This document shows positions 3,784 to 29,260 of a stretch of 33,185 nucleotides of DNA, in pieces. Source of the DNA: Elusimicrobiota bacterium (GTDB lineage Bacteria > Elusimicrobiota > Elusimicrobia > FEN-1173); contig DAOQNO010000001.1 in NCBI GenBank assembly GCA_035332125.1, positions 1 through 33,185 on the forward strand, written 5' to 3'. Under the pieces are notes generated by a model. The model saw nothing but the letters and a program-made list of their open reading frames with translations, had not been told where the DNA came from and did no database searches. The position numbers and the translations under genes were made by a program. Each line of letters opens with the position of its first letter. Positions within the stretch are counted from its first letter, which is position 1.

Positions 3784-5733
3784 GTGAACGTCACGAAACG
3801 ACGTTGGATGCTGGTCGCCGCTCTGGCCGCCGCCGCCCCCTTGGGGGCCGCGGTGATTGATCCTTTTGAGTCCCTTTCGGGTTGGTCGACTTTCGCCGAT
3901 ACCGGGTCCACCGTGACTTTAAGCGCCGTCACGGGCGTCGCGGGCAACGCCCTTCAAATGAATTACGACATGACGGCCGGATCTTTTGTCGGCATCACCC
4001 GCACCTACAGTTCCCGGAATTACGCGGCCACGGGGGCCAACGCCCTCCGGTTCGCCTACCGGGCCTCGGGCCCCACCAACACGGCCCAAATCGAATTCGT
4101 CGACGCGGACAGCACCACCACGGTCTTGGCCGACGGCCTGGTTTACAAGTTTCCCGTGACCCCGGACAACACCTGGCGGGAACTCACCGTTCCCCTGACG
4201 GATTTCATTACCTTCGCCAACGGCAACTCTTCCTTCGATTTGTCCCAAACCGCGAAATTCAGCTTTGGCGTCACCAAAGACAACGGCTCGGCCGGGACCG
4301 GCACCGTTTATTTCGACGCGTTCCACTTGATCCGGGCGACCCAGCCCGTTTCCTTGATCGACGGCAGTGAAAATTCCATTCCCGGTTGCGTGGCCAATTC
4401 GGTTCTCAACACCTGCGTCAACGACCGCATCGGACCCCAGTCCATCATTTATTTCCAGAGCGCGGGGTCGGGATACTCCGCGGTCGTTTCGACGGTCACG
4501 ATGAAAGGGGCCAAAACCCGTGAACTCAAGTGCACCTTGGGCGGCGGGCAATTCTGCGGCGTGGCCGAGGAGCTGGGCGGAATGTCCCTCCGCGGCAACG
4601 AAAGCATTCGGTTTTACGCGGGTTCGAATTTCGGCGGTTCCTCCGTTAAAATGGAAGTGAAAGACGTGGCCAGCGTCACTTTCAGCACCACGGTCACGGG
4701 GCTCCCGGCGCCCCCGGCCAACTTTTCGACGTACACTTTTTCCGCGGCCGCCATCCAAGCGGCCCAGCCCGCCATCGACCTGAGCGCTCTCAAGGAAATT
4801 GTTTTTGTCTTTGACACCGCCGGCGCCCACGACCTTTATTTCGACGACCTGTCCATCGTTCCGCCCGCGGCGACTCTGGCCGACCTGTCCGTCGTGGAGG
4901 ATTTTGGGTCCGATCTGGCCGAAGGGAACTTCGTCACGGCGGCACCCACCCAGGCCACCGTGGGACTGTCCTACGTGGACGATCCGACGTCCTTGGGCGC
5001 CGGGGCCGACAACCGGGTGGCCAAGCTGGATTACAGCTTTGCCGTGGACCCTTCAACGCCCTTCGCCGTGGCGGAGCGGACGTTGGGCATCAACCTCCTG
5101 GCCGAGCCCGGTCTTCGCTTCCGGTTCAAAGGGACCGGGGGAAACGAAAATTTAGAGGTCAAAATCACCGACGGCGACGGAACGATCTACGTAAAGAAAT
5201 TGACCGAGGTGACGGACACCGGGGGGGTCTGGAAAACAGCCACCCTCAAAAGCGACCAGTTTTCCTTCAGCACGCTCGGCAGCGACGCGCGGTTGGATTT
5301 AAAGAACATTACGAAGGTGGACTTCGCGGTGTCTCTGGGCAAAGCGGCCGCGGGGACCTTGGCCTTGGACAATCTGGAATCCCTGCCGGCCACCGATTTT
5401 CAAAAAACGTCCATCGGACGCGTGTTGACCCAGGTGACCACCCCCAACAATCCCTTTTCCCCCAACGGGGACGGCATTAAGGACTCCTTCCGTTTAACCT
5501 ACACCCTCAGCCAAACGGCCCACGTGGTTCTCCGGTTTTACGCCCTGCACGGGGCTTTGATCAAAACCTTCGACGTCGGCGATCAAACGGCGGGGGACCA
5601 CGCCATCGATTGGGACGGCACCGCGGACGACGGGCGGCGGGTCGGCAACGGCCTGTGCCTGTTCTCCTTGGAGGCCGACGGAGCTATCGACGGGAAAGAC
5701 ACGTTTAAAGAAATCGCCGGGGTGCTCCGATGA
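3784..5733 (+). CDS. Secreted protein with 3 CBM-like beta-sandwich modules and a C-terminal FlgD-Ig/T9SS-like domain
   Basis: GTG 3784 lies 5 nt after AGGAG (3774-3778) and yields the signal peptide MNVTKRRWMLVAALAAAAPLGA|AV. Three ~160-aa modules each end in a '...G(T)-x-Y-F-D-x-(F/L)' strand (VYFDAFHL, LYFDDLSI, LALDNLE). The C-terminus (~5440-5730) has NPFSPNGDGIKDSF...VVLRFYALHGALIKTF...HAIDWDGTADDGRRVGNGLCLF. The ORF's maximal start, 3742, would overlap the upstream gene. Confidence 0.8.
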   Translation: MNVTKRRWMLVAALAAAAPLGAAVIDPFESLSGWSTFADTGSTVTLSAVTGVAGNALQMNYDMTAGSFVGITRTYSSRNYAATGANALRFAYRASGPTNTAQIEFVDADSTTTVLADGLVYKFPVTPDNTWRELTVPLTDFITFANGNSSFDLSQTAKFSFGVTKDNGSAGTGTVYFDAFHLIRATQPVSLIDGSENSIPGCVANSVLNTCVNDRIGPQSIIYFQSAGSGYSAVVSTVTMKGAKTRELKCTLGGGQFCGVAEELGGMSLRGNESIRFYAGSNFGGSSVKMEVKDVASVTFSTTVTGLPAPPANFSTYTFSAAAIQAAQPAIDLSALKEIVFVFDTAGAHDLYFDDLSIVPPAATLADLSVVEDFGSDLAEGNFVTAAPTQATVGLSYVDDPTSLGAGADNRVAKLDYSFAVDPSTPFAVAERTLGINLLAEPGLRFRFKGTGGNENLEVKITDGDGTIYVKKLTEVTDTGGVWKTATLKSDQFSFSTLGSDARLDLKNITKVDFAVSLGKAAAGTLALDNLESLPATDFQKTSIGRVLTQVTTPNNPFSPNGDGIKDSFRLTYTLSQTAHVVLRFYALHGALIKTFDVGDQTAGDHAIDWDGTADDGRRVGNGLCLFSLEADGAIDGKDTFKEIAGVLR

Positions 5734-6593
5734 ACCGCCGCTGGTCCTTTGCTTTCCTTTTGTTGGCCGCTCCCGCCCTGCGGGCGGCGTTCGAGCCCCT
5801 GGGGTACGGCGCCGCGGCCAAGGGCATGGGGGGCGCCTACGTGGCCTCCGCCGAAGACGGCACCGCCGCCTATTGGAACCCGGCCGGCCTGGCCCTGGTT
5901 CGTCAGCCGCAATTGACCGCTTCCATGGAAGACTTGTACGGATTGGGCCTCCTTCGCTACGCGGCCGTGGGTTATACCCATCCCCGGCTCGGCGGGGGAA
6001 CGCTGTCGGCCCATTTGCTCCATCTCGACACGACGGGCGAAGCCGATTTTTATAAATACGCCGAGAGCACTTACCTGGTGGCCTACGGCAAATCCCTCTG
6101 CCAGGACTGCCTGAGCGTGGGGGCGGGGCTCCGTTACTACGCCGCCCAGGGCGGCGGCGCCCGGGGGTCGGGCGTCGGCCTCGACCTGGGTCTTTTGTGG
6201 CGTCCCTTCGACGACCGCCTGCGCCTGTCGGCCGCTTGGCAGGACGCCAATCAGCCCTCCATTCGCTGGGACACGGGCGCCGAGGATCTCCAGCCCTACA
6301 CCGTCCGGACGGGCGCCTTGTTCCGTTTGACCACCACGACGGATTTGGCGGCGGAATGGGACAAGCGACGATTTGAGAAGGCCCAATGGCGGTTCGGCGG
6401 CGCCCAGCGATTGATGAAAAATCTGGTCACCTTCCGGGGCGGCCTCCACCGCGGGGGCGACCAGGAGCAATGGGGCTTTTCCGTGGGCGGCGGTTTCCAC
6501 TTCCGGACCTTTGATGTGGATTACGCCTGGGACAGCCAGGAAGCTCTCGGCAACACCCAAACCATGAGTCTCGGATTGAGGTTCGGCCAATGA
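5730..6593 (+). CDS. PorV/PorQ-like (UPF0164-like) outer-membrane beta-barrel protein
   Basis: The start overlaps the upstream stop as ATGA. The signal peptide is MNRRWSFAFLLLAAPALRA|AF. The N-terminal signature AAAKGMGGAYVASAEDGTAAYWNPAGLA matches the A-x-A-L-G-G-A...D(D/E)...NPA pattern of PorV/PorQ-type barrels. The rest shows alternating aromatic/Gly beta-strand periodicity and a C-terminal ...SLGLRFGQ. Confidence 0.7.
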   Translation: MNRRWSFAFLLLAAPALRAAFEPLGYGAAAKGMGGAYVASAEDGTAAYWNPAGLALVRQPQLTASMEDLYGLGLLRYAAVGYTHPRLGGGTLSAHLLHLDTTGEADFYKYAESTYLVAYGKSLCQDCLSVGAGLRYYAAQGGGARGSGVGLDLGLLWRPFDDRLRLSAAWQDANQPSIRWDTGAEDLQPYTVRTGALFRLTTTTDLAAEWDKRRFEKAQWRFGGAQRLMKNLVTFRGGLHRGGDQEQWGFSVGGGFHFRTFDVDYAWDSQEALGNTQTMSLGLRFGQ

Positions 6594-17700: not shown

Positions 17701-20700
17701 GGTCAACGCCGCTTCCCTCGCCTCGACCGGGAAACCCCTTCGGCCGGTGGTCGGCGCGCTCCTCACCGGCGTTCCGACCCTTTTCGGCGCGCTCCTGGCC
17801 CTTCAGAGCGCCGGATTCGTCGAGGGCCTGGCCGACGCGCTCACCGGGGGCGGTTTCGCCGGACGCGGCCTGCTTCTCCAGACCCTGGGGCGGGTTTTGC
17901 TGGTGTTCGCGGTCAACGAAGCCGTGGCCAACGCCATCGGGCTCGCCGTCAAAGGCAAGGGCCTCACCTCGGCCCGTGGGCATTTGCTTCTTTTCGCCGT
18001 GTCGCTCGGCGTTGTCGTGGCGCCCCAAATCGCGGACGCCGGGTCGTCGGCTTGGGTCGCTTCCCTGCCGCCGCCGGCCGCGGCCGGCGTGGCCGTAGCG
18101 GCCGCCATGGTCGCCCAGGCGGGCCTGTGGGTGGAGGTGTATCTGGTCTCCGGCCTGGTGTTGGACGGGATTTACGGATACGCCCCCGCCCGGGTTCCCC
18201 TCTACCGGCACGCCGCCGTGGGCCTGCAAAAAGGTCTCGCCTTCAGCGGACTTTTCCTCGGCGTTCTGTTCGCGGTCAAGCTCGGATTGTCCGTGGCCGC
18301 GGTCCAGGAATTTCTCGCGGGATCGCCGCTGTTGGCCGGGGCGGTCCTCGGGGCTCTGGTTTATCCTTTCGCCAAGGCGATCGTGGAAAGCTTTGACGGG
18401 AGCATGTCGTTTTTCCGCCGAGCGGTCTACAGTTACCGGAACGGAACCCTTTACGTTCGCGGCGCGGTGGCGGGCGCGGCCCTGGCCTTCGGTTTCACCG
18501 GCGGGTGGGCCGCCCGTTCCACCGGCGAACGCCTCGCCTTCGGCCTTCTGGCCGGCGCCCTCGCTTCGGCGGGGATCAGTGTGCTCCGCGACGCGGTTTA
18601 CGCCGCCACCCGCCGCGGTCGCGTGGGCGTTTGGAAAATTTATCTGGTCGACGGCGGATTGGGGGCCTTCATCGGCGCGGCCTTGGCTTTTTATTTGGAC
18701 GCCGCCCAGGTGCCCGTGTTGGTGGAAAAATTCAAACTTTACACCTCGAGCGGTTTGCCCTCCCAGAACTACACGATTTACGCGCTTCTCAGCAAATGGG
18801 GCCGGGTGGATCTGGGTTCCTTTGCCGGCGGGGCCAAACTGTTCTTCAACGAATCCCTGGCCGGGGTCCTGACCTGGGCCATCGCGGCGTGGCTGTTCGC
18901 GGTCAACCGGGTGTTCATGACCGCGTACTTTCAAAAGGACAAGCAGCCGATCCGGCACTTTTTCTCCCGGGCCGGCCTCGTGGAGTTGGGCGTCAACACG
19001 ATTCACGTGCTTCGCTGGGGTCTGTGGATGGCGCCCATCATCAACACGGGCCTCCGAATGATGGGCCACGCCACCTGGTACAACCAGGACGGCGCGATTC
19101 GAACCCTGGTGGCCATCGTCAAGAACATCACGCTCCACCCCGCGGATTTTCAAGCCTGGAGCCTGAACTTGTTCGTGGCGTTGCTGGCCTACGACGCGGT
19201 CCGCGTGTTGATCTGGATCGACCACATGGGCCTGCGGGTGGCGACCCTCGTCAACCTGAGCTTCCTCGGCATGGACAAACTGGACGAACGCATCGCCCGT
19301 TTCATCGGACCCTCCGCCGCCCAGCGTTACATTCCCGAAGGGGTCAAACGGTTCACGACCTGGGCCCCGCTCCTGATCCCGTTCTACATTCCCCGGGGAG
19401 CGGACTGGGACATGGCCTGGGAAACCTCCCAAAAAATGCAGCGGGCCGCCGCCGAAGCCGGCGGTTTGGACGCTTTTCTCCGGGGCGTTTCGCCCCTGGC
19501 CTGGGCCCTCTGGGGCGCCGGCGCCCTGGCCCTCTTCACGGGACTGATTGTCCTTGGTCGCAAGCGCGCGGAACGTCGTTCGGGGGTCCGGGCCCATGCC
19601 GCGGAATTGGCGAACCGGGAGTACAAGGTGGTGATCAAGGAAAACGGCGAATTCCACAGTGAAATTCTGCAAAAGGGATACGACGTGACCCGCCGGTCCT
19701 ACGACACCCTGGACCCCGCCGGCCGAACCCTGTTTTTGGTCGACACCGAAATCCCGCTCGGGCGCCCGGGCCGCTATTGGCCCCTGGCCGGGAATTTCCC
19801 CCGGGATCGCTTCGACGCGCCCGTGGTTGAGCGTTTCGGCGACGCCCTCCGTTTGATGACTTCCTCCCACGGCGTGCGCGCCACGATCGACGTCCGTCTG
19901 CCGGACCGGGACACCCCGGCGGAGCTGTGGACCCTCACCCTGGAGAACCAGTCCGACCAGCCCCGTCAATTGGTGGCCGTTCCCTACGTGGAGTGGGTGC
20001 TGGATCGACCCGATTCCGACAAAGGACATACCCAGTATGGCCGCCTCTTCCCGGAGATGGAATACGTCCGGGAATCCAACGCCGTCCTGGCCTGGCAGAA
20101 AAAGACGAAGACCATGGGGTATCTGGCGGTTCAAACGGCGCCCCGGGGGTTCTGCACGTCCCGCATGGATTTCATCGGACGCGCCCGAAGTCTCTGGTCT
20201 CCCCGGTTGTTGGAAACCCTTAAATTCTTGGACCCGCAAGACACGGCGGGGTACCCCACCTTCGACCCCATCGCCGGCTTAAAAATCGACGTGGAATTGG
20301 GCGCCCGGGAATCCAAAACTCTCCGTCTGATTTTGGGGAGCGCGAAAAGCCGGGAAGCGGCTCTGGCCGTTCTGCAAAAGCACCTTCGACCCGAAACCGT
20401 GGCGCCGGCCAGCCCGGCCCGGAAGGGCCACCGGGTGCCGCTGATCGGCCACGGCGAAATTCCACCGGGAACGCCCCAGCCGTACTCCGACTATTCGCCC
20501 GATGGAAACACCCTGCGGGTGCACACGCCCCTTACCCCGCGCCCCTACGATCACGCCCTCTCGAACGCGGTGGGGCACTACGTGATGGTCACGAACCGGG
20601 GGCTCCACACGACCTCCAACGGCAATTCCCAGCAAAACCCCGTGACCCCCGATTGGCCCGACACGGTCACCCGGGAGCTTCCCGCCGAGGCCATTTATCT

Positions 20701-22804
20701 TTACGACCCGGAGGAAAAGGAGTGGTTTTCGCCCACCCATCATCCGTTGAACGACCCCGCGGCCAAAAACACCGCGGCCTTCGGCGTGGACGGGACCGCC
20801 GTTTTCCACATGACCAAGAATTCCCTGTCCACCGAATTGACCGTGTTCGTCCCGCCCCAGGAACCCCTGGGGATTTACCGCCTGACGGTCAAAAACAAAG
20901 GGACCCGGACGCGCCGCCTTCGGGTGGCGCCCTATTTCCAAATCGTCCTCGCCGGACAGGCGGAGCCCCGTCGGCGGCCCCTCAAAGTGACGCTGGACAA
21001 ATCCCTGGACGCGCTTTATTTTGAAAACCCGGTAAACGCTTTCCGCTGGGGTCCGGCTTTTGCCTCGCTCTCCATCCCGGCGGAACGGATCGAATCCCAG
21101 CGGGGACGCTTCTTTGGGACCGGCCGCGGGGTGGACCGCCCGCTGTTGGTCGAGCGGGGAGAGCCCGATTGGACGCAAACGTCGGACGACCGGCCGGTGG
21201 CGGGTTTCCTCGGCTCCCTGGAAATCCCCCCGGGCGAGGAGCGCACCGTGGTGGTGGTTCTGGGCCAGATCGATACCCGGGAACAGGCCGCCGCCCTCAT
21301 TCGAAAATACAAGAGCGCGGAAGCCGCCCAGGCCAGTCTGGAAGAAACCCGCCGGTGGTGGACCCGGTTGGTGGGCACCGTGCGCCTGGAAACCTCCAGC
21401 GTTGATTTCGACCGGTTCCAAAACTGGCTCAAATACCAGGCCGTGGCCGAGCGCCTTTGGGCCCGGCGCGGCTTCTATCAAACCAGCGGCGCCTTCGGTT
21501 TTCGGGACCAGCTTCAAGACTCGGTCAATCTGACCTGGGTGGACCCCGCTCTGGCGCGCAAACAAATTCTTCTTCACGCCTCCCAGCAATTCATCGAGGG
21601 CGACGTGGTGCACTGGTTCCACACCCTGCACGACGGGCGAACGGCCTTTTCCAATCGGTCCCACGCCTCGGACAACCTGCTGTGGCTGGCCTGGGCGGCG
21701 GCGGAATACGTGCGCCTCACCGGGGACGAAACGTTGTTGGACGAAATGACGACGTACTTAAGGGCCGAGAACCCCTTCCTGCCCCTGCCCCACAACAAGC
21801 ACGGCTGGGGCACCATCTATCCGCGATCCACCCGGGGCGATACGGTTTACCGGCATAGCCTGAAGGCCATCGACCTGGTCCTCGAAAAACGCATGGGAGT
21901 CAACGGAATCCCATTGATCGGCACCGGCGATTGGAACGACGGTTTGGACGAAATCGGCAGCGAGGGTCGGGGGGAAAGCGTTTGGCTCGGGTTCTTCCTC
22001 CTCTATATATTGAAGAACACCCTGAACATCATCGAGAAAAAAGACGGCCGCCACCGCCGGGATTACTACCTGAAACGCGCCCAGGAACTGGAAGCGGCGT
22101 TGGAAAAAACCTGGCGGGGGGACCGCTATCTTCGGGCCATTCACGACGACGGGACGGAGATCGGCGTGAAAGATTCCGGCGTGTGGGAAATCGACGCCTT
22201 GACCGCCGCCTGGGCGGTCATGGCCGGGTTGAACCCGGAGCGGGCGCGCACGGTCTTTCAAACGGCGCTCACCGTGTTGGAGCGGGAGAACGTTGTTCTC
22301 CTGGGCTGGCCCGCCTTGCGGGAGGACACGAAGCCCTATCTCGGGCGTAGCAGTCATTATCCCGAAGGGGTCCGGGAAAACGGCATGTACTGCCACGGCG
22401 TGCAGTGGCTTGTAAAAGCGGCGCGAATTCTCGCGGAGAAAGCGGAGGAGGACGGCGACGTCGCCAAGGGCAAGGAATACCGGGACGCCAGCTACCGCCT
22501 CTGGATGAAAATCGCTCCCCTGTCCCACGTCGCCACCGGAGAGATTGAGGTTTACGGCGGTCAGCCGAACAAGCAATCGGCCGACTTCCTTACGACCTTT
22601 GATCAGGGCCGGATGATCTGGCACGGCTACACCGGGGCCGCCGGCTGGATGCTCCGCCAGGCCTTTGAAGGCGTGGCCGGGGCTTCTCTCGTCGGAAACC
22701 AGGTGGTGATGCCCCTGGATCTTTCGGAGCTTCGCGGGCCCCTTCGGCTCAAGGCCATTTCCCGGGATTTGTCGGACAGCCCCCTTCGCCCCGGCCGCCC
22801 ATAG
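14771..22804 (+). CDS. Giant (2,677 aa) membrane-embedded GH94 glycoside phosphorylase with an exported 5x repeat array (Cgs-like but without a recognisable GT84 domain)
   Basis: SD GGAGAG (14759-14764) lies 6 nt before the ATG. The leader is signal-like (WIAALVVLWVAASAMA). Five tandem repeats span 14918-17220. A run of ~15-20 hydrophobic segments spans ~17230-19570. The C-terminal ~1,060 aa carry GH94 hallmarks: GFRDQLQD (21497-21520), VVHWFH, GTGDWNDGLD (catalytic-acid motif GDWND at 21927-21941) and YCHGVQW. Confidence 0.9.
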   Translation: MERCGQRKGFTNKATAEGRDARGGTRWIAALVVLWVAASAMAADGLASARSRGVFNIGPSQGTVNTLQDPDLQKPVLKFDFTAPAGALVGVWTKDYPSTVNAGAVQRVVVSVKGPTVPPPASVALEIKGVREVQRLPLVLRAGWNRTESAIDWGRIGALKEIVFVVSSAPGQKAAGTLLFDLEFAAGAPASAAVLPADAQALDAAHAPARGFFNIGPADGKATAVPGPDGRGALQFDYAIPPKSMAGVWTKGYPPALSPATANAVEATVRFPAAGAARRLSATVELKGTKAVQRIPLELTDGVSKSLHAVDWKTIGKLKEAVLVVSPAGGKSETGTLLFNLAFVKRAVLPKTGGARRLAEVAERGAFNIGKAQGTISRVRDGELRRDVLRFDFTAAPKAVVGLWSKGYAADLSAAVANAVSVGVKGGRGAPVAAVGLEIKGDKETQRIPLSVGAEWTRTDRAVEWDAIGKVKEVVFVVTPLDPAKKSAGRFYFDLAFEKTPVAPAGAPGLGLLSATEKGVFTIGGAEGRVVIESEAAAKKNVYKFTYAVASGSLAGVWTKGYPADLTAATANAINAAVKTTTPEQRETLSVALELKGDKAVQRVPLETGDGWATTEHAIDWPTIGNLKEAVFAVTPAPGRSSRGDLYFDLSFLQGGTPDLAGAGAPGAFGLLNAGKRGVFNMGASDGRILVAFDDTVKKDLIRFEFTAASGSAVGVWSSEYPPALTPETANGVRVAVHAADAAQAAAVAVAVEIKGLKETQTVEVPLHEGWTTVREGVDWKTIGGLKEAVFVVKPTPGGGSVNGALTLDLEFIQGDFVLKKGPRVGGKIGLVLLTGFLLFLATALVGRWIRGRSPSVPAPDAIPVPGMGRDLLMGSLLTAGLVGTVATFVVGSLPGSEGSFGFLLLGALGALVGEGATRILAQRPGTPGEVFLNFVYTGLVAASSSLQPLWLAPTNGAHIFLNNHLTAAVLFALYHGVNAASLASTGKPLRPVVGALLTGVPTLFGALLALQSAGFVEGLADALTGGGFAGRGLLLQTLGRVLLVFAVNEAVANAIGLAVKGKGLTSARGHLLLFAVSLGVVVAPQIADAGSSAWVASLPPPAAAGVAVAAAMVAQAGLWVEVYLVSGLVLDGIYGYAPARVPLYRHAAVGLQKGLAFSGLFLGVLFAVKLGLSVAAVQEFLAGSPLLAGAVLGALVYPFAKAIVESFDGSMSFFRRAVYSYRNGTLYVRGAVAGAALAFGFTGGWAARSTGERLAFGLLAGALASAGISVLRDAVYAATRRGRVGVWKIYLVDGGLGAFIGAALAFYLDAAQVPVLVEKFKLYTSSGLPSQNYTIYALLSKWGRVDLGSFAGGAKLFFNESLAGVLTWAIAAWLFAVNRVFMTAYFQKDKQPIRHFFSRAGLVELGVNTIHVLRWGLWMAPIINTGLRMMGHATWYNQDGAIRTLVAIVKNITLHPADFQAWSLNLFVALLAYDAVRVLIWIDHMGLRVATLVNLSFLGMDKLDERIARFIGPSAAQRYIPEGVKRFTTWAPLLIPFYIPRGADWDMAWETSQKMQRAAAEAGGLDAFLRGVSPLAWALWGAGALALFTGLIVLGRKRAERRSGVRAHAAELANREYKVVIKENGEFHSEILQKGYDVTRRSYDTLDPAGRTLFLVDTEIPLGRPGRYWPLAGNFPRDRFDAPVVERFGDALRLMTSSHGVRATIDVRLPDRDTPAELWTLTLENQSDQPRQLVAVPYVEWVLDRPDSDKGHTQYGRLFPEMEYVRESNAVLAWQKKTKTMGYLAVQTAPRGFCTSRMDFIGRARSLWSPRLLETLKFLDPQDTAGYPTFDPIAGLKIDVELGARESKTLRLILGSAKSREAALAVLQKHLRPETVAPASPARKGHRVPLIGHGEIPPGTPQPYSDYSPDGNTLRVHTPLTPRPYDHALSNAVGHYVMVTNRGLHTTSNGNSQQNPVTPDWPDTVTRELPAEAIYLYDPEEKEWFSPTHHPLNDPAAKNTAAFGVDGTAVFHMTKNSLSTELTVFVPPQEPLGIYRLTVKNKGTRTRRLRVAPYFQIVLAGQAEPRRRPLKVTLDKSLDALYFENPVNAFRWGPAFASLSIPAERIESQRGRFFGTGRGVDRPLLVERGEPDWTQTSDDRPVAGFLGSLEIPPGEERTVVVVLGQIDTREQAAALIRKYKSAEAAQASLEETRRWWTRLVGTVRLETSSVDFDRFQNWLKYQAVAERLWARRGFYQTSGAFGFRDQLQDSVNLTWVDPALARKQILLHASQQFIEGDVVHWFHTLHDGRTAFSNRSHASDNLLWLAWAAAEYVRLTGDETLLDEMTTYLRAENPFLPLPHNKHGWGTIYPRSTRGDTVYRHSLKAIDLVLEKRMGVNGIPLIGTGDWNDGLDEIGSEGRGESVWLGFFLLYILKNTLNIIEKKDGRHRRDYYLKRAQELEAALEKTWRGDRYLRAIHDDGTEIGVKDSGVWEIDALTAAWAVMAGLNPERARTVFQTALTVLERENVVLLGWPALREDTKPYLGRSSHYPEGVRENGMYCHGVQWLVKAARILAEKAEEDGDVAKGKEYRDASYRLWMKIAPLSHVATGEIEVYGGQPNKQSADFLTTFDQGRMIWHGYTGAAGWMLRQAFEGVAGASLVGNQVVMPLDLSELRGPLRLKAISRDLSDSPLRPGRP
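14918..17220 (+). repeat. Five in-frame tandem protein repeats (~154-160 aa each, diverged) within the giant gene
   Basis: Each unit opens with (R/K)G-x-F-(N/T)-(I/M)-G, at nt ~14927, ~15400, ~15862, ~16323 and ~16802. Each continues with L-x-F-(D/E/T)-(F/Y), G-(V/L)-W-(T/S)-K-(D/G)-Y-P, (L/V)-E-(I/L)-K-G-x-K-x-x-Q-x-(I/V/L)-P-L, (I/V)-(D/E)-W-x-x-I-G-x-(L/V)-K-E-(I/A/V)-V-F-V-V and (L/F)-x-F-(D/N)-L-x-F. Confidence 0.85.
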
Positions 22805-23233: not shown

Positions 23234-23971
23234 ATGAAGAGACTCACCACTCTGGGAGGAGCCCTCGCGGTCGCCGCGTTCGCCCTCTCCAGCGCGCAAG
23301 CAGGATCGGTGGACACCAAAACGGCCAACGTCTCCGTGACCATCGCGGGCGTCAACACCATCAGCCTGGCGATCAAGAACATGGACGGCACCGCCGCCAC
23401 CGAAATCGGGTTCGCCAATGTTGATCCGGGCGGGTCCACCTGGGCGGCCAAGGGCTCTCAATTCGTCCAACTGAGCGTCGTTGACAATATCAACACCGGC
23501 TGGGAACTGCGCAACTACACCGACAACTTCAACTTTGCCGGCGGCATCCTGCCCGACACGACCACCTGGGGTTACCAATACGGCGGTCTTCGGAACGTGG
23601 ATGTCAATGGCCAGCGCGCGGGCGTGGGGTGGATGGTTCTCCCCGACTCCGACGTGGCCAAGAACTTCCAGGGTCCCGACGCGGCCAACCCGGTGGACGG
23701 TGCGAGCAACGGCTACACCTTCCTCAAGGACCGAAGCGACCAAAACCCTCCGCTGGTCACCGATCAGTCCTTTGATGGATCGGGCGGCTACAAAAACGTG
23801 GCGTTCGGCAGCTTGACCGAAACCCGCATCGTTCGTCCCAACCGCCCCGGCGGCAACGACGTTCTGAGCGGGAAAACCGCGCCCTTCTTCTACTTCCTGG
23901 GCGGTGACTTCAAAGGCGTGGCCCCCGGTCATTACACGGCGACCATCACCTTTGAATTGATGAACCTCTAA
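23234..23971 (+). CDS. Small secreted beta-rich protein; candidate major structural subunit of a surface assembly (distant WxL-like pattern)
   Basis: ATG 23234 lies 5 nt after AGGAGG (23223-23228). The signal peptide is MKRLTTLGGALAVAAFALSSAQA|GS. The sequence is rich in Gly/Asn/Thr/aromatic residues, with motifs ISLAIKNMDGTAATEIGFANVDPGG, VVDNINTGWELRNYTDN and the C-terminal GHYTATITFELMNL. The ORF's maximal start, 23168, lacks an SD. Confidence 0.75.
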   Translation: MKRLTTLGGALAVAAFALSSAQAGSVDTKTANVSVTIAGVNTISLAIKNMDGTAATEIGFANVDPGGSTWAAKGSQFVQLSVVDNINTGWELRNYTDNFNFAGGILPDTTTWGYQYGGLRNVDVNGQRAGVGWMVLPDSDVAKNFQGPDAANPVDGASNGYTFLKDRSDQNPPLVTDQSFDGSGGYKNVAFGSLTETRIVRPNRPGGNDVLSGKTAPFFYFLGGDFKGVAPGHYTATITFELMNL

Positions 23972-24032: not shown

Positions 24033-24854
24033 ATGCGGACATTCTCGTTCCTCGGCGCTTCCGCGCTGGCGCTTCTGCTTGCCCCGGTTCTCCGGGCCAA
24101 CACCTTTTTGGAGGTGCGGCCGGGGGTCGTGGAAGAGTCCGTTCCCGAGGGCAAGACGGCCAAAGGAAAATTGATCGTCCGCAACACCGGCGACACCGAA
24201 GTCCTCGTTGAAGTTGAAGTGCGGGACGAATGGGCCACGCGCACGGGCCTTCCGTCTCTTCCGCCCTCCGAATGGCTGGACCTGAAATATCCCCACCCCT
24301 TTGTTTTAAAACCCGGCGCCGCGAAAGAAGTGGGTTACACCGTCACGCCGCCGACCTCGTTTAACGGCGAAGCCATGGCCATGGTCGTTTTTGGCGGACC
24401 CACCTCCGCCGGCAGCGGCGGCACCGGATATCGATTTCGGCAAGGAATTCCCTTTTACATGTTGTCGACGACGACCGTTCAGGGCCAAATAGCCCTGGCC
24501 TCCCTTCAGGTGTATCTCAACGCGATCAAGCAGTTGGAATTTGCCGTGGAACTGAAAAACAATGGGCCCGTTCATGTCCGCGCTCAAGGGGCACTGAAAA
24601 TTTCAAACTCCCGCGGAGCGGAAATCGGCAACGCGCCGCTGGCCGGCGGCATACCGGTTTTCCCCACCAAGACGCAAAAATATTATGCGCGGGATCAAAA
24701 AAACAACTATTCCGAGGGACTTTACCGCGGCGAATTGAGCGTGGCCGGCGAGAAGGGTGAAATTCTTTTGGTCGGCGTGTGCGGTTTTCGTATCGATAAG
24801 AAAGGGCAAATCACCATTACCAGCCCTTTTGCGGAGAGACCCCGTGCGCCTTAG
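24033..24854 (+). CDS. Secreted two-domain Ig-like protein (PapD-like/DUF916-like chaperone or scaffold candidate)
   Basis: The signal peptide is MRTFSFLGASALALLLAPVLRA|NT. Domain 1 is FLEVRPGVVEESVPEGKTAKGKLIVRNTGDTEVLVEVEV...WLDLKYPHPFVLKPGAAKEVGYTVTPP. Domain 2 is LEFAVELKNNGPVHVRAQGALKISNSRGAEIG...PVFP. The 'L-x-V-x-N-x-G-x-x-x-V-x-V' strands are typical of Ig-fold periplasmic chaperone or adhesin-scaffold domains. Confidence 0.7.
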   Translation: MRTFSFLGASALALLLAPVLRANTFLEVRPGVVEESVPEGKTAKGKLIVRNTGDTEVLVEVEVRDEWATRTGLPSLPPSEWLDLKYPHPFVLKPGAAKEVGYTVTPPTSFNGEAMAMVVFGGPTSAGSGGTGYRFRQGIPFYMLSTTTVQGQIALASLQVYLNAIKQLEFAVELKNNGPVHVRAQGALKISNSRGAEIGNAPLAGGIPVFPTKTQKYYARDQKNNYSEGLYRGELSVAGEKGEILLVGVCGFRIDKKGQITITSPFAERPRAP

Positions 24855-25584
24855 CGCATCGTCTTTGATTTCAATCGGGTTCCCGGTGTTGGTGTTTTTT
24901 GCCGGCGGCCCGGCGCGCGCGCTGGATCTTAAGCCGGAATTGATTTTCCTCCGCGGGGAAGAAGGCGCCGCTGTTTCCACGACCATCGCGGTCGTCAACA
25001 ACTCCTCGGAAACAATCCGGGTCACGTTGGAGGCCCACGGGCCGGGCGAGGCGCCGGCGCCGTGGTTGTCCCTGAGTCCCCGGGCCCTGCGGGTGGCCGC
25101 GGGGGCCCGCCGTGTGGTCCGGCTGAAGGCCGTCGTTCCCAAGGCGGTCGGTGAAATGGGGGGCGAGGTTTGGGTTCGTCAGCGGGCCCCCGGAGAATTG
25201 ACCGAAACCCGGGTGGTGCGGCGCGTGGCCCTGCGCGTGGCCGGCACCGAGGTGTTTGAGGCCCAACTCAAAGACATCGAATCCGGGGTGGAAGGCAACG
25301 ACGTGGTGGTTCACGCGGTGTTGGTCAACACGGGCAACGTGACCCTTCGCGCCAAGTTGGTGGCCGATTTGGAACGAATGGACGGTCCCCTGGTTCGAGC
25401 GGTGACGGACCTGACCGGCCAACCCGTCGCCCCCGGGGAAAGTGTCCGGGCCCGGTTGGCCGCCCCCAAAGTCGGATGGTTTTGGACGGGGCGCGGGAAT
25501 CTCTCGGCCTATTACCGGGACGCCGACGGCAAAACCATCCAGATCCTTAAACCCATCGGGGAGGCGTCGCGTGGCACGCCGTGA
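24844..25584 (+). CDS. Secreted two-domain Ig-like protein, paralogue of 24033..24854
   Basis: GTG 24844 follows GGAGAG and overlaps the upstream gene by 11 nt. It yields the signal peptide MRLSASSLISIGFPVLVFFAGGPARA|LD. The two-domain logic is the same as in 24033..24854 (LIFLRGEEGAAVSTTIAVVNNSSETIRVTLEA...WLSLSPRALRVAAGARRVVRLKAVVP, then VVVHAVLVNTGNVTLRAKLVADL...). The ORF's maximal start is 24757. Confidence 0.7.
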   Translation: MRLSASSLISIGFPVLVFFAGGPARALDLKPELIFLRGEEGAAVSTTIAVVNNSSETIRVTLEAHGPGEAPAPWLSLSPRALRVAAGARRVVRLKAVVPKAVGEMGGEVWVRQRAPGELTETRVVRRVALRVAGTEVFEAQLKDIESGVEGNDVVVHAVLVNTGNVTLRAKLVADLERMDGPLVRAVTDLTGQPVAPGESVRARLAAPKVGWFWTGRGNLSAYYRDADGKTIQILKPIGEASRGTP

Positions 25585-27145
25585 CGGCTGGCTTCGCGCG
25601 GCGGTCGCGGGCGGCGCGACCCTCTTGTTGTCCGTTAACGCGGGCGCGTTGAATTTGAAAATCCGCAACGTGGCCGACGACGCCGCCGCCACGGGCGTGT
25701 CGTTCAGCTCGGCGTCGGGAGCGGCCAACCAGTACCACACCGGGCTCCAATACGTTGAAATCACCCACCCCGATTCCCACTTTCGAAAAGTGTATGTGTA
25801 CACCGATAACGGCGGCGCTTTCGGACAATCCAAGGAAGGGCTCATCAATTTGGACGACGCGGCCCAACCCGCCGTTCCCTTCTATTGGCGCAATTTCCCC
25901 GGCCGGCCCGACGACTTCGCGCCGGCCAACGAATGGGCCTGGACATTGATGCTGGAAAAATCCCTCCCCGAATTTTCGGTTCCCGCCACCAAGGACGCCC
26001 GGGCCCTCGTGACCCCGGACGCCGGCGGAATTTCCCGCGTGGCCCTGGCCTTTAAAACCCCGGCGGAAGTGGTGCGGGGTACCTACGTTTCCCGCCTCGT
26101 GCTGGAGGAGTCCAGCGACGTCGCCGACATCAACGGCCCCACGGTCGGCCACACGCCGTTCAACGACGTGATCCTGGTCAACATCCCCATCGGCGTCGAG
26201 TCGACGGCGGAAGACGACGGGTCCGTGGTGTCGTCCACCTTTTATTTCCGGCTCGACGGGACGGGGGCCTACCAGCCGCGGCCGACGGTGTTGACGCCGG
26301 ATCCGGTCAACCCCTTCAAATGGGTGGTCCAGACGACCCTGGCGCCGGGGGACGTCCACGCCGGATTCATGGACTATTATTTCGCTGCCCGGGACAATTT
26401 CGAAAACGAAACGATCACGCCCGTCTACCGGGCCAACCTGGTCCCCGAGGACGGGCCCGTGACGCGGACGATGTCGGCGGAGGGCGGCCTCACCACGGTG
26501 CCCGTGGGCGATCCCCTCCTGCCGGGCCTGACCATCGATTTCCCTCCCCGCAGCCTGAACGGCGACCAAACCATTCAGGTCACGCTCAAGCCCTCCACCC
26601 ATTACCCACCGGTGGAGGGCGGCGTTCCGTTGCGGGTCTTCGATCTGACGCCCGAAGGCCTTCGCTTCAGCCGGCCGGTCACCCTCAGCATTCCCTACCC
26701 CGACCAGGACCAGGACGGACGGGTGGACGGGAGCGGCGTCGACGAAACGCTGTTGCGGGTGTTTTGGTACGACGGCCACCTCTGGCGGTTCGTGGGCGGG
26801 CAGGTGGACCCGGTGGCCAACCGGGTGAGCGTGACGGTCTCCCACTTCAGCGTCTACAGCCTGGCCCCTCTGGCGACGACGTTGACCCCCGACATGGTCC
26901 GCCCCCAGGAAAAAATCATCACGCCCAACGGCGACGGACAAAACGATTTCGCCCAGTTCAACATCTCGGGCGAGTTCGACGTGGAATTTTTCGATTTGCG
27001 GGGCGAGCGGGTGCGGCGCCTCTCCGGCATCAACAGTTGGGACGGCCGGGACGACGACGGGAAGCTGGTTGAGACCGGAACGTATATTTACCGGTTGACG
27101 GGCCAAGGGCTGACGGTGACGGGCGCCCTGGCGGTGGCGCGTTGA
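25571..27145 (+). CDS. Secreted multidomain surface protein: N-domain paralogous to the small subunit, central Ig-like domains, and a C-terminal gliding-motility/T9SS type-B-like (CHU_C/FlgD-Ig) domain
   Basis: GTG 25571 lies 8 nt after GGGGAGG and overlaps the upstream gene by 14 nt. It gives the signal peptide MARRDGWLRAAVAGGATLLLSVNAGA|LN. The N-domain has LNLKIRNVADDAAATGVSF, YVYTDN and GTYVSRLVLEE. The central part has LLRVFWYDGHLWRFVGGQVDPVANRVSVTVSHFSVYSLAP. The CTD (~26908-27142) reads IITPNGDGQNDFAQFNISG..VEFFDLRGERVRRL..SWDGRDDDGKLVETGTYIYRL. Confidence 0.75.
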   Translation: MARRDGWLRAAVAGGATLLLSVNAGALNLKIRNVADDAAATGVSFSSASGAANQYHTGLQYVEITHPDSHFRKVYVYTDNGGAFGQSKEGLINLDDAAQPAVPFYWRNFPGRPDDFAPANEWAWTLMLEKSLPEFSVPATKDARALVTPDAGGISRVALAFKTPAEVVRGTYVSRLVLEESSDVADINGPTVGHTPFNDVILVNIPIGVESTAEDDGSVVSSTFYFRLDGTGAYQPRPTVLTPDPVNPFKWVVQTTLAPGDVHAGFMDYYFAARDNFENETITPVYRANLVPEDGPVTRTMSAEGGLTTVPVGDPLLPGLTIDFPPRSLNGDQTIQVTLKPSTHYPPVEGGVPLRVFDLTPEGLRFSRPVTLSIPYPDQDQDGRVDGSGVDETLLRVFWYDGHLWRFVGGQVDPVANRVSVTVSHFSVYSLAPLATTLTPDMVRPQEKIITPNGDGQNDFAQFNISGEFDVEFFDLRGERVRRLSGINSWDGRDDDGKLVETGTYIYRLTGQGLTVTGALAVAR

Positions 27146-27146
27146 T

Positions 27147-28073
27147 ATGAAATTCCATCTCCATCGAGTTTGGAAGCCGGCCGCGACGGCGATGTTGGCG
27201 TTGGTCGCCGGGTCCGCCGAGGCGGCTTTCCGGGATCCCCTTTGGTCGGCCCGGGCGGCGGCCCTGGGCGGCGCCTTCACGGCGCTGGGGGACGATCCCA
27301 CGGCGGCTTTTTACAATCCCGCGGCGACGACGGAATTGAAATCGCCGGCGGCCAATTTCACCTACGCCAAACTGTTCGCCGGGCTGGACGAGGTGAATGT
27401 GTCCTTAAGCGAGTTCGCCTATGTGCGGCCGCTCAAATCCTTTAACGTCCTGTCGGTCGGGTGGGGGAGCGTCAACGCCTCCGGTTTGCGCCGGGAAGAC
27501 ACCGTGACCCTCGGCGTGGCCCATCTGTTTCGCGATTTGGGCGACCTCGGAAACCTGTCTCTCGGTGTTTCGGGTCGGTGGTTGTCCCAGTCGTTCACGC
27601 TCGATAACCGTACCTCCAGCGACCCCGTTTTCCGGGACGGGCGCACGCGCAACGACTTCGCCTTGGACCTTCACGCCCACGTGACCGAGGTGGACGCCCT
27701 CTCCCGGAACCTCGCCCTGGGCGTTTCCCTGCGGGCGGTCAACCGTCCCGACATCGGGTTCGCCTCCAAAGACAAATTGCCCATGGAGGCGGTATTGGGC
27801 CTCGCCTACCGGTGGCGGAATTGCACGTTGCCCTTGGACATCGTTCAGCGGGGTTCCGACGTCACGCCCGAGGCGGGCCTGGAGGCCCGGTTTGCCGCCG
27901 ACCACCTGTCCCTCCGGTTCGGGAGCGACACGCACTCGCTCGGCACCGGCCTGGGCTACCGCTACGAACGTCCCAACGGGCTCGTGCTGTCTTTTGATTA
28001 CGCCTTCCTTTGGCCCCTCAACATTCAAGGGACCTCCGGGTCTCACCGGGCCACCCTGGGGGTGCGGTTTTGA
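27147..28073 (+). CDS. PorV/PorQ-like outer-membrane beta-barrel protein (second copy)
   Basis: The signal peptide is ...AMLALVAGSAEA|AF. The N-terminal signature is SARAAALGGAFTALGDDPTAAFYNPAA. Strand periodicity is visible throughout, and the C-terminal beta-signal ends in Phe (HRATLGVRF). The gene starts 2 nt after the CTD-protein gene. Confidence 0.75.
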   Translation: MKFHLHRVWKPAATAMLALVAGSAEAAFRDPLWSARAAALGGAFTALGDDPTAAFYNPAATTELKSPAANFTYAKLFAGLDEVNVSLSEFAYVRPLKSFNVLSVGWGSVNASGLRREDTVTLGVAHLFRDLGDLGNLSLGVSGRWLSQSFTLDNRTSSDPVFRDGRTRNDFALDLHAHVTEVDALSRNLALGVSLRAVNRPDIGFASKDKLPMEAVLGLAYRWRNCTLPLDIVQRGSDVTPEAGLEARFAADHLSLRFGSDTHSLGTGLGYRYERPNGLVLSFDYAFLWPLNIQGTSGSHRATLGVRF

Positions 28074-29260
28074 ACGTTCAACGAGGGGCGCTCTGGGGGG
28101 CGGCGATCGGGTCAATCCTTCTCGGCGGTCCGTCCCGAGCGGAACCCCAGTCGGTGGCGGTGCGCACCGTGGGCGTCGGGGTCGAGCTGGTGACCACCAT
28201 CGACCATTTTAACGACGGCGATGATTTGAACCTCTGCGGCGGTACCAACGGGACCTTCGCCGGGGGCGGCGCGACCCTGACCCGCACCTACGATTCGGGG
28301 GTTTTTCACGGCGCCAGCGGCCGTTCCGCCCGCCTGGACTACAACCTCCCGGCTCCGGGCGGATTCGGGGGGTTCGTCCTGCCGCTCGCCCCCGGCGGGG
28401 GGACGGTCAACCTGGCGTCCTACAAATCCCTCGGTTTTTGGGTTCGGGGGAACGGCGGACTTGAACACCTCAAAATCGAGTTGGACAACGCCTCCGCCGA
28501 TGGCGCGCGCAACCGGGCCGCGGTGTACCTCGGCGACTACGTCGACGGCGGTCCGACGACCCAATGGCGGCGGGTGATCATTCCCTTCGCCGCCTTTGGA
28601 AATCTGGACTCTTTCGCCAACGTGGGGTCCCTGGTGCTGGTGGTGGAACGGGACTACGCGGAGGCTTCGGGGTTCGATGCGGCCGGCACCCTTTACATCG
28701 ACGACGTCGCCCTGATGGCGACCGACCCCGCCTCGGCCCCGTTGGACAACTTTGCGGACAATTGGGATCGGCACGCCCTGGGCGGCCGATTGGGGGATTT
28801 CGGCAGCGTCACCAGCGTTTCCCACGCCTTTGTCCCCGGAACGTTTCACAACGCGGCGCGGGCGCTCAAAACCACCTACGACGTGACCGGCGCGGTGGGA
28901 TCGGATTTCGGCGGCCATTATTTCGCCCTGGGCGGCGGGGCGGACGGGCTCACGTCGCTCCCGGTCAATTTATCGGCTTTTCGTTACCTGAAATTCTGGG
29001 CCAAAGCCGGCGTCGAGGGCAATCCCGTCCGGTTCCGGGTGGAAATAAAATCCAACGCGGGGACGGCCAGCGCGCCGATCGGCGGCCTGACGGCCGCCTG
29101 GGAACCCTACGTCGTGGACATGAGCCTTTTTCCACCGGCCCAACTGGACAAAACGTCCATCAAAGAATTCACCATCGTTTTCGAAAAGGCCGTCGTTCAA
29201 TCCCAGGGCGGGGCTTTGCAGGGCGTGGTGTACTTCGACGAATTCGAATTGGCCCGCTGA
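28070..29260 (+). CDS. Secreted protein with 2 CBM-like beta-sandwich modules
   Basis: TTG 28070 overlaps the upstream TGA as TTGA and gives the leader M-NVQRGALWGAAIGSILLGGPSRA|EPQ. The ORF's maximal TTG 28010 would overlap the upstream gene by 64 nt. Modules: IDHFNDGDD...LGFWVRGNGGLEHLKIELDN...WRRVIIPFAAF...GTLYIDDVAL, and LDNFADNWDRHALGG...LKFWAKAG...FRVEIKS...WEPYVVDMSLF...IKEFTIVF...VVYFDEFEL. Confidence 0.8.
   Translation: MNVQRGALWGAAIGSILLGGPSRAEPQSVAVRTVGVGVELVTTIDHFNDGDDLNLCGGTNGTFAGGGATLTRTYDSGVFHGASGRSARLDYNLPAPGGFGGFVLPLAPGGGTVNLASYKSLGFWVRGNGGLEHLKIELDNASADGARNRAAVYLGDYVDGGPTTQWRRVIIPFAAFGNLDSFANVGSLVLVVERDYAEASGFDAAGTLYIDDVALMATDPASAPLDNFADNWDRHALGGRLGDFGSVTSVSHAFVPGTFHNAARALKTTYDVTGAVGSDFGGHYFALGGGADGLTSLPVNLSAFRYLKFWAKAGVEGNPVRFRVEIKSNAGTASAPIGGLTAAWEPYVVDMSLFPPAQLDKTSIKEFTIVFEKAVVQSQGGALQGVVYFDEFELAR

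Follow-up and report, generated by a model that had tools for sequence, protein, structure and literature searches.

Organisation of the locus

The DNA analysed in this study (the window) is the 33,185-nucleotide stretch of Elusimicrobiota contig DAOQNO010000001.1, and the subject is a pair of adjacent genes within it (pair 2), of which one codes for a secreted multi-domain protein ending in a putative sorting-type C-terminal domain (cargo 2 and its CTD) and the other codes for an outer-membrane beta-barrel (barrel 2). A second pair of the same kind lies upstream (pair 1, consisting of cargo 1 and barrel 1). The G+C content of the window was 58-66%, and the convincing genes were all located on the + strand. 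Both open reading frames (ORFs) of pair 2 were found on this strand with the coordinates given in a preliminary description of the window (25571-27145 and 27147-28073), and four contigs of metagenome-assembled genomes (MAGs) at NCBI, on which genes had been called independently, carried identical products of 524 and 308 amino acids (aa). The cargo 2 gene started with GTG at 25571, with the Shine-Dalgarno sequence GGGGAGG upstream, and stopped with TGA at 27143-27145. After a spacer of one base, the barrel 2 gene started with ATG at 27147 and stopped with TGA at 28071-28073. The features are listed in Table 1.

Pair 2 was part of a six-gene operon with translational coupling throughout, in the order 245-aa secreted protein, two secreted immunoglobulin (Ig)-like proteins, cargo 2, barrel 2, and a 396-aa protein resembling carbohydrate-binding modules (CBMs). 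The TTG start of the last gene overlapped the stop of barrel 2 (TTGA). Among the loci fetched for comparison (L numbers), the operon was conserved in L005, L008, L010 and L031, and operon gene 1 was kept at the same position in all four. The product of this gene matched the N-terminal domain of the L011 cargo in BLAST (E 1.5e-10) and, weakly, cargo 2 within the window (E 0.013), and produced no Pfam or NCBIfam family match. Orthologues of operon gene 2 were found in L005, L008 and L010, and those of operon genes 3 and 6 in L005 and L008. Operon genes 2 and 3 were also considered as PapD-like chaperones of a chaperone-usher-like pilus operon, and this was rejected, as there was no family match in its favour and the mutual similarity of the two proteins was not significant (E 2.1).

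Table 1. Positions of the features of pair 2, its operon, the remainder of the window and related Elusimicrobia loci
Feature	Position	Strand	Basis
Operon gene 1: 245-aa secreted protein; distant CTD-less paralogue of cargo 2 N-terminal domain	23234..23971	+	gene call, BLAST
Operon gene 2: 273-aa secreted two-domain Ig-like protein	24033..24854	+	gene call; weak family matches
Operon gene 3: 246-aa secreted Ig-like protein; 14-nt overlap with cargo 2 start	24844..25584	+	gene call; weak DUF7507, FixG_C matches
Cargo 2 (operon gene 4): 524-aa secreted protein; N-terminal domain, Ig-like beta-sandwiches, type-B-like CTD	25571..27145	+	ORF, MAG gene calls, AlphaFold2
Cargo 2, predicted Sec signal peptide MARRDGWLRAAVAGGATLLLSVNAGA	25571..25648	+	sequence inspection; AlphaFold2 pLDDT <50 for residues 1-25
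Cargo 2, conserved pre-CTD beta-sandwich (…WRFVGGQVDPVANRVSVTVSHFSVYSLAP…)	26633..26887	+	BLAST, HFSxY motif
Cargo 2, type-B-like CTD: last 85 aa, ending …VTGALAVAR	26888..27142	+	Pfam CHU_C, AlphaFold2
Barrel 2 (operon gene 5): 308-aa, predicted 14-strand outer-membrane beta-barrel; N-terminal plug-like segment, C-terminal Phe; PorV/PorQ/PorP superfamily	27147..28073	+	NCBIfam, PDB profile, AlphaFold2
Operon gene 6: 396-aa secreted protein, weak CBM11/CBM30-like similarity	28070..29260	+	gene call
Cargo 1: 641-aa, CBM11-containing; FlgD_ig/weak CHU_C CTD	3808..5733	+	Pfam, gene call
Barrel 1: 287-aa, PorV/PorQ-like	5730..6593	+	NCBIfam PorV_fam 77 bits, E 1.5e-21; alignment
C-terminal end of 5240-aa giant protein (first window ORF)	1-1440		longer contigs of three other samples
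DUF3131/Glycoamylase-type glycosidase	1571-2965		
860-aa protein just downstream of pair 1: N-terminal CBM30/CBM11/CIA30-like domains, ~480-aa C-terminal region ending in Phe	7873-10455		
ABC transporter, solute-binding protein fused to permease	10463-12712		
2677-aa protein: ~five repeated CBM-like N-terminal modules, large membrane region, C-terminal GH94 phosphorylase domain	14771-22804		
FliF/FliG-like/MotAB cluster (related loci)	L017:13430-16509; L018:5869-9106; L022:15206-20390; L025:10001-16862; L026:10001-17029; L032-L045		
HAMP histidine kinase directly upstream of, often overlapping, 120-150-aa CTD-only gene (related loci)	L017:9463-11466; L025:8529-10429; L026:8538-10387; L024:9343-13815		

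Cargo 2 and its C-terminal domain

The Sec signal of cargo 2 was predicted by eye. The AlphaFold2 model (predicted local distance difference test score, pLDDT, 84) was all-beta and multi-domain; in it the signal peptide and an N-terminal domain precede several beta-sandwiches and a final domain. A search with the whole-cargo fold returned generic multi-Ig matches only (template modelling score, TM, <= 0.21: PorU, PPAD, an S-layer protein and antibodies) and nothing specific to a function. Of the earlier label "large surface protein", the part borne out is a secreted multi-Ig protein, and location on the surface stays presumptive.

The last 85 aa agreed exactly with the C-terminal sequence quoted in the preliminary description, and the CHU_C/type-B-like class proposed for them there held: with a gathering cutoff of 27 bits, Pfam CHU_C (PF13585) scored 32.5 bits on the whole protein (E 9.8e-8) and 37.4 bits when the last 85 aa were taken alone. 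All of the aligned Elusimicrobial CTDs (16/16) matched CHU_C, and NCBI gives some of the cargo homologues the name 'gliding motility-associated C-terminal domain-containing protein [Elusimicrobia bacterium]'. In the AlphaFold2 model the CTD consisted of four strands (residues 469-474, 480-485, 503-511 and 514-523) behind a less ordered TPNGDG segment; this make-up, a four-strand sheet together with a less ordered portion, has been described for type B CTDs (PMC12618676).

The CTD was always located at the extreme C-terminus and carried the conserved end …G-T-[IV]-x-V-A-[KR], often with the HFSxY sandwich before it. The passenger varied from ~50 to >1200 aa in length while the last 85 aa stayed conserved, the shortest members being CTD-only proteins of 120-150 aa. 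When cargoes of 422-1307 aa were matched by BLAST, the alignments began ~180-245 aa from the C-terminus, so that the conserved part took in the pre-CTD beta-sandwich, which is common to cargoes with otherwise unrelated passengers; the HFSxY motif was conserved in this sandwich, and a weak ZU5 match was also found there.

Family and fold of barrel 2

Barrel 2 contained the SARAAALGGAFTALGDDPTAAFYNPA motif quoted earlier and ended in …GSHRATLGVRF, which agrees with a 308-aa barrel having a terminal-Phe beta-signal. The NCBIfam PorV/PorQ family (NF033709) matched with E 5.3e-13 (49.3 bits, model positions 12-206 of 326) and the NCBIfam PorP/SprF family (TIGR03519) with E 1.2e-7 (31.5 bits), and there were further matches to the NCBIfam PorQ and PorV2 models, below their curated cutoffs. 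Of the 20 aligned members of the barrel family, all (20/20) matched PorV_fam, with a best E of 8e-30, and 17 (17/20) matched PorP_fam. Pfam PorP_SprF (PF11751) was found on the homologues P0011-P0014, P0035, P0046 and L014:7884-9479, the last of which passed with 48.9 bits against a cutoff of 22.3. Some members of the family weakly matched TraF_2, UPF0164 and Toluene_X. The family was sizeable: grouping at 50% identity gave at least 380 clusters with E <= 1e-30 and 1463 with E <= 1e-10.

In a search of the PDB with the barrel-family profile, PorV of Flavobacterium johnsoniae (6h3i_F) was the sole meaningful sequence match (E 5e-7). The AlphaFold2 model of barrel 2, built from the alignment of the barrel family (pLDDT 88.5), showed 14 strands after a short helical plug-like N-terminal segment. 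Its top fold matches were PorV in T9SS (type IX secretion system) translocon complexes (8gl6_F, TM 0.70; 6h3i_F, TM 0.68), followed by OmpG and the FadL-family 14-strand barrels (FadL, TodX and OmpG, TM 0.5-0.6). Sequence and predicted fold thus support the superfamily of the PorV/PorQ-like barrel described earlier, which may be called PorP/SprF-like with equal right.

Lineage, synteny and co-divergence of the pairs

Named homologues of the cargo and the barrel all came from Elusimicrobia, Elusimicrobiota or Endomicrobiales MAGs or from an unclassified 'bacterium'. The species-representative genome collection yielded 14 loci, which belonged to Elusimicrobia except for a MAG classified no further than 'bacterium' and a 1.5-kb contig that binning had assigned to Patescibacteria. 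The homologues and loci place the host in Elusimicrobia, in keeping with the earlier remark that the lineage is unlike classical Bacteroidota. The short contig (L016; JBBTQT010000014.1, 1470 bp, binned as 'Patescibacteria group bacterium') carried a CTD and barrel pair; given its 86-88% identity to Elusimicrobia loci, it is probably a binning contaminant.

Hidden Markov models (HMMs) of the Elusimicrobial CTD and barrel were run on the six-frame ORFs of all fetched loci. The loci selected by the barrel contained 25 CTD ORFs and 28 barrels. Every CTD ORF (25/25) had a barrel <=400 nt downstream, and every barrel with upstream DNA present (25/25) had a CTD ORF before it; 12 of the 25 pairs lay in flanks and were unselected. 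Three pairs were found in tandem in L008. In the five loci chosen through a CTD-only protein, a barrel was located within 1 kb of 5 of the 10 CTD ORFs. Over all Elusimicrobia loci examined, 30/35 CTD ORFs had a barrel <=1 kb downstream, a proportion far beyond chance, which upholds the view that chance adjacency is unlikely. The CTD-only proteins of 120-150 aa were still paired with barrels, and the cargo-then-barrel order held down to 31% barrel identity across Elusimicrobia.

The CTD and barrel distances of 24 pairs were correlated (r = 0.89, Mantel 0/5000), a value that is inflated by shared phylogeny. A recent tandem duplicate in L008 showed 81% identity between the CTDs and 94% between the barrels. 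These comparisons within a genome stay informative despite the inflation, and the pair is the unit of duplication and divergence. The claim that each barrel is the private partner of its upstream cargo is supported by the synteny and by the co-divergence of CTD and barrel, including that of paralogous pairs within a genome.

Comparison with known systems

Type B CTD substrates in Bacteroidota rely on cognate PorP/SprF-like barrels, the genes of which are usually located directly downstream (PMC12618676), and these barrels hold the substrate on the surface (PMC9143113). Pair 2 and its relatives resembled the SprB-SprF and Fjoh_3952-Fjoh_3951 pairs (PMC12618676, PMC9143113) in having a Sec signal, a variable passenger, a C-terminal CHU_C-type domain predicted as a four-strand sheet with a less ordered part, a conserved C-terminal region of ~180-245 aa, a barrel gene directly downstream, and many paralogous cognate pairs per lineage. 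The barrels belong to the same superfamily, with some Elusimicrobial members passing Pfam PorP_SprF. The differences were the host phylum, which is Elusimicrobia, a higher score of barrel 2 on the PorV/PorQ model than on the PorP model, and the end of barrel 2 at its beta-signal Phe, with neither a C-terminal tail nor Cys-X-Cys. In SprF, a periplasmic C-terminal Cys-X-Cys tail bonds GldK and links to the gliding track (PMC12635249). Because barrel 2 is without this tail, the SprF analogy covers the carrier or anchor role and not gliding.

With PorV (6h3i, 8gl6), barrel 2 shared the 14-strand FadL-like barrel and the N-terminal …ARxxxxGGAxxAxxDDxxAxxYNPA… motif, at ~14% identity in structural alignment. 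PorV is a single general carrier of type A CTDs that docks on SprA, whereas here each barrel goes with a single cargo gene and with a type-B-like CTD. The FadL, TodX and OmpG channels were alike in strand number and overall fold (TM 0.5-0.6), but barrel 2 had no sequence-family match to them and its context was a conserved protein partner instead of catabolic genes.

Barrel fusions and peptidoglycan-binding neighbours

In Porphyromonas gingivalis, PorE, PorP and the type B protein PG1035 form a complex (PMC9143113), and the domains of PorE are TPR, beta-propeller and OmpA_C (PMC12773672). A similar combination of PorP-family barrel, type-B-like CTD protein and peptidoglycan-binding TPR protein was seen in Elusimicrobia, where the PorE-like coupling took three forms. 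Fusions were found in one clade, in which the barrels have C-terminal extensions: L017:11494-13425 was a barrel-TPR-LysM fusion, and P0043 and P0214 were barrel-OmpA fusions. The barrel and a TPR-LysM protein were encoded by separate adjacent genes in L022, while a TPR protein and a PorZ-like beta-propeller-OmpA protein were encoded near the pair in L024. The arrangement differed from PorP-PorE-PG1035 in that LysM often took the place of OmpA_C and no porKLMN operon adjoined. In the window itself, barrel 2 was unfused and no PorE-like gene was present. By analogy, the fusions would give Rosetta-stone-type support to a PorP-PorE-like link to peptidoglycan and to an anchoring role. This set of fusions and neighbours also included L014:7884-9479 and L024:15621-17636, and a further type of barrel extension was an unidentified region of ~200 aa.

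A FliF/FliG-like and MotAB cluster in related Elusimicrobia

In L017, L018, L022, L025 and L026, a pair consisting of a CTD-only protein and a barrel-TPR-LysM protein was followed by a 500-589-aa protein, MotA, 1-2 MotB-OmpA genes and the unrelated polA. The 500-589-aa protein contained two transmembrane segments, a periplasmic part of ~170 aa with weak FliF_C similarity, and cytoplasmic FliG_M and FliG_C domains; it scored 106 bits on TIGR00207, which is below the cutoff. In full, the cluster began with a TPR protein and three unknowns, continued with a ~900-aa fn3 cargo carrying a CTD, a barrel, a HAMP histidine kinase and a CTD-only protein, and ended with barrel-TPR-LysM, the FliFG-like protein, MotA and MotB. 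NCBIfam gave no T9SS-related match on two of the cluster unknowns (L025:429-1556 and L025:2782-3834).

A metagenome scan seeded with the FliFG-like protein showed MotA directly downstream in 11/11 loci where the sequence allowed it. TPR-LysM adjoined the FliFG-like gene in 8 loci, including high-G+C variants, and the FliFG-like locus L042 had no barrel or CTD nearby. A CTD profile search returned hundreds of short CTD-only proteins, and the named ones were all from Elusimicrobia. The combination of histidine kinase and CTD-only protein resembles P. gingivalis PorY and its ligand PorA (PMC12152298).

Some Elusimicrobia are flagellated, and the cluster may be of flagellar origin. An apparatus distinct from the flagellum is favoured by the order of the genes and by the odd FliG-like protein; it could be an envelope motor not described before that is linked to the CTD and barrel modules. 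It is tentatively suggested, at rather long odds, that Elusimicrobia own a kinase-regulated sorting or motility machine that is T9SS-like only at the outer-membrane end and is driven by a FliF/FliG-like rotor with MotAB instead of GldLM/GldKN. If this were true, such a machine would have in common with the T9SS its type-B-like CTDs, its PorP/PorV-like carrier barrels and its TPR modules that bind peptidoglycan, and a histidine kinase with a CTD-only partner protein would regulate it. Both window pairs would then be satellite cargo/carrier modules of that machine, and the CTD-carrier pairs would either be older than the T9SS of Bacteroidota or be the product of independent recruitment.

Interpretation of pair 2

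Cargo 2 and barrel 2 are likely to form a cognate substrate/carrier module of the type-B-CTD and PorP-SprF kind, in which the barrel is a dedicated carrier or anchor. From homology, fold, synteny and co-divergence, we infer the binding of CTD and barrel, the surface location and the export route as follows. Cargo 2 would be exported by Sec to the periplasm and fold as a string of beta-sandwich domains, with its last ~85 aa and the preceding conserved sandwich forming the type-B-like CTD. This CTD would be recognised by the 14-strand PorV/PorP-family barrel 2, whose gene is translationally coupled to that of the cargo. Barrel 2 would not be the export channel; it would act as dedicated carrier and membrane anchor for this one cargo at the outer membrane and would most likely hold it on the cell surface, as SprF does for SprB and PorP for PG1035. 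The secreted proteins of the operon, one of them a CTD-less paralogue of the cargo N-domain, probably assemble on or with the anchored cargo 2, which, as a speculation, may nucleate or hold a small surface assembly with them. Crossing of the outer membrane would need a translocon, and a lineage-specific machine encoded elsewhere in the genome is favoured.

Several results and reports weigh against this interpretation. The T9SS is described in the literature as exclusive to Bacteroidota, T9SS carriers depend on SprA as translocon and on GldKLMN as motor, and TXSScan found no secretion system in two complete Elusimicrobia genomes, those of Elusimicrobium minutum and Rs-D17 (PMC4793230). A literature search returned nothing relevant that links Elusimicrobia to T9SS, PorV, gliding or secretion systems; SprA, GldKLMN and PorU are not reported in the literature for Elusimicrobia, and no genome scan for them was made here. 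Barrel 2 scored under the curated NCBIfam cutoffs (49.3 against 90 bits for PorV_fam and 31.5 against 90.55 for PorP_fam), and the Pfam scan of barrel 2 itself gave no match, including to PF11751 and Toluene_X. Because Pfam found nothing, the family assignment rests on the sub-threshold NCBIfam matches, the homologues, the PDB profile search and the fold. Cargo 2 likewise scored below the curated cutoff of the NCBIfam type B model TIGR04131 (20.7 against 35 bits, E 3.3e-4), and the best PDB sequence matches of the CTD profile were the Fn domain of streptococcal C5a-peptidase (E 3e-7) and FlgD. The PNGDG…WDG…GxYxY motif is general to the FlgD-Ig-like fold and not specific to T9SS, and for this reason the case rests on the C-terminal position, the best-family match, the partner gene and the co-divergence, and not on the motif. 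The pairing was also incomplete: L027 contained three orphan CTD genes without a barrel within 10 kb, and in L022 two CTD ORFs shared one barrel that was 4.8 kb away, with toxin-antitoxin genes between. Orphan CTD genes are present in F. johnsoniae as well.

Export of unfolded polypeptides through small barrels is possible in type V systems, and barrel 2 could be imagined to translocate its own CTD-targeted cargo together with BAM, without a T9SS-like translocon or motor. The strict 1:1 pairing of the genes, their translational coupling and the absence of any reported canonical T9SS in Elusimicrobia would suit such autonomous two-partner export. It is nevertheless considered quite improbable, since barrel 2 is PorV-like, with 14 strands and a plug-like N-terminal segment, and its homologues PorV and PorP are carriers and not channels (PMC12618676, PMC9143113). 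Barrel 2 also has no POTRA or other periplasmic chaperoning domain, cargo 2 is predicted to be a chain of folded beta-sandwiches, and the same modules adjoin the motor cluster in related genomes, suggesting a larger machine. Retention of the cargo in the periplasm, where the CTD would dock on the barrel (at its periplasmic face or its plug) and the protein would serve as an envelope-spanning or glycan-binding scaffold, is unlikely. Homologous CTD-carrier complexes end on the cell surface (PMC9143113, PMC12618676), and the cargoes of this family, being fn3/Ig strings of up to ~1500 aa, look like adhesins or surface layers. In favour of retention, no translocon is known in the lineage, the PorA CTD of P. 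gingivalis acts on PorY in the periplasm (PMC12152298), and the parts fused to barrels (TPR-LysM and OmpA) lie in the periplasm, where they bind peptidoglycan; the window is also well stocked with CBM-like proteins and beta-1,2-glucan genes, whose products can be periplasmic.

The pair could also be viewed as a generic FadL-like channel for the import of hydrophobic solutes or glycans, standing beside an unrelated Ig-domain protein whose CTD is just another FlgD-like Ig domain. The strong fold matches to FadL, TodX and OmpG (TM 0.5-0.6), the weak TraF_2, UPF0164 and Toluene_X matches in family members and the presence of the CTD motif in non-T9SS proteins speak for it. This explanation is very hard to credit in view of the 25/25 synteny in both directions, the co-divergence of CTD and barrel, the constant location of the domain at the extreme C-terminus with a conserved ending, the barrel pairing of even the CTD-only proteins of 120-150 aa, and best sequence and fold matches to PorV and PorP rather than FadL.

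The substrate/carrier arrangement has so far been described only in Bacteroidota, and T9SS with its CTD/carrier logic is treated as a hallmark of that phylum. Since paired, co-diverging cargoes and barrels are abundant in Elusimicrobia, the substrate-carrier module would be older or more mobile than the T9SS machine. The pairs offer a testable handle on surface-protein display in a poorly understood diderm phylum, and the natural barrel-TPR-LysM and barrel-OmpA fusions independently support the PorP-PorE anchoring model from P. gingivalis. Should the link with FliF/FliG-like proteins and MotAB prove functional, it would indicate a motor of the envelope that has not been described. Most of the interest lies in how the cargo crosses the outer membrane.

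Pair 1 and its relation to pair 2

Pair 1, the other occurrence reported in the preliminary description, was confirmed in the window at 3808-5733 and 5730-6593. Cargo 1 matched Pfam CBM_11 with 53 bits, FlgD_ig with 43 bits and CHU_C with 18.8 bits, and the Elusimicrobial CTD HMM scored 27.7 bits on it. The identity between the two window pairs was 24% for the CTDs and ~25% for the barrels. The preliminary description had asked whether the two barrels are recent paralogues; this relationship was rejected, given the ~25% identity and the separate orthologues that each barrel has in other genomes, and the two are best read as ancient paralogues. Orthologues of the pair 1 type adjoined pairs of the pair 2 type in L008-L011.

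The two window pairs run parallel to two Bacteroidota classes. Pair 1 has a FlgD_ig, type-A-leaning CTD and a barrel that matches PorV/PorQ-type models only, while pair 2 has a CHU_C, type B CTD and a barrel that also matches PorP/SprF.

Other genes of the window

The 860-aa protein encoded just downstream of pair 1 had no NCBIfam match, including T9SS-related models, and its C-terminal region looks like an outer-membrane barrel. The 5240-aa giant protein of which the first window ORF is the C-terminal end produced no Pfam match. A LacI-like ORF (2985-3755, + strand) is uncertain as a gene; it was uncalled in other assemblies of the same sequence, in which a 161-aa ORF on the minus strand was called instead. 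The region between the two pairs (window 1571-22804) looks like a beta-1,2-glucan locus, with the glycosidase, the ABC transporter and the 2677-aa GH94 protein of Table 1, and it also contained CBM9/CBM11/CBM30-like secreted proteins.

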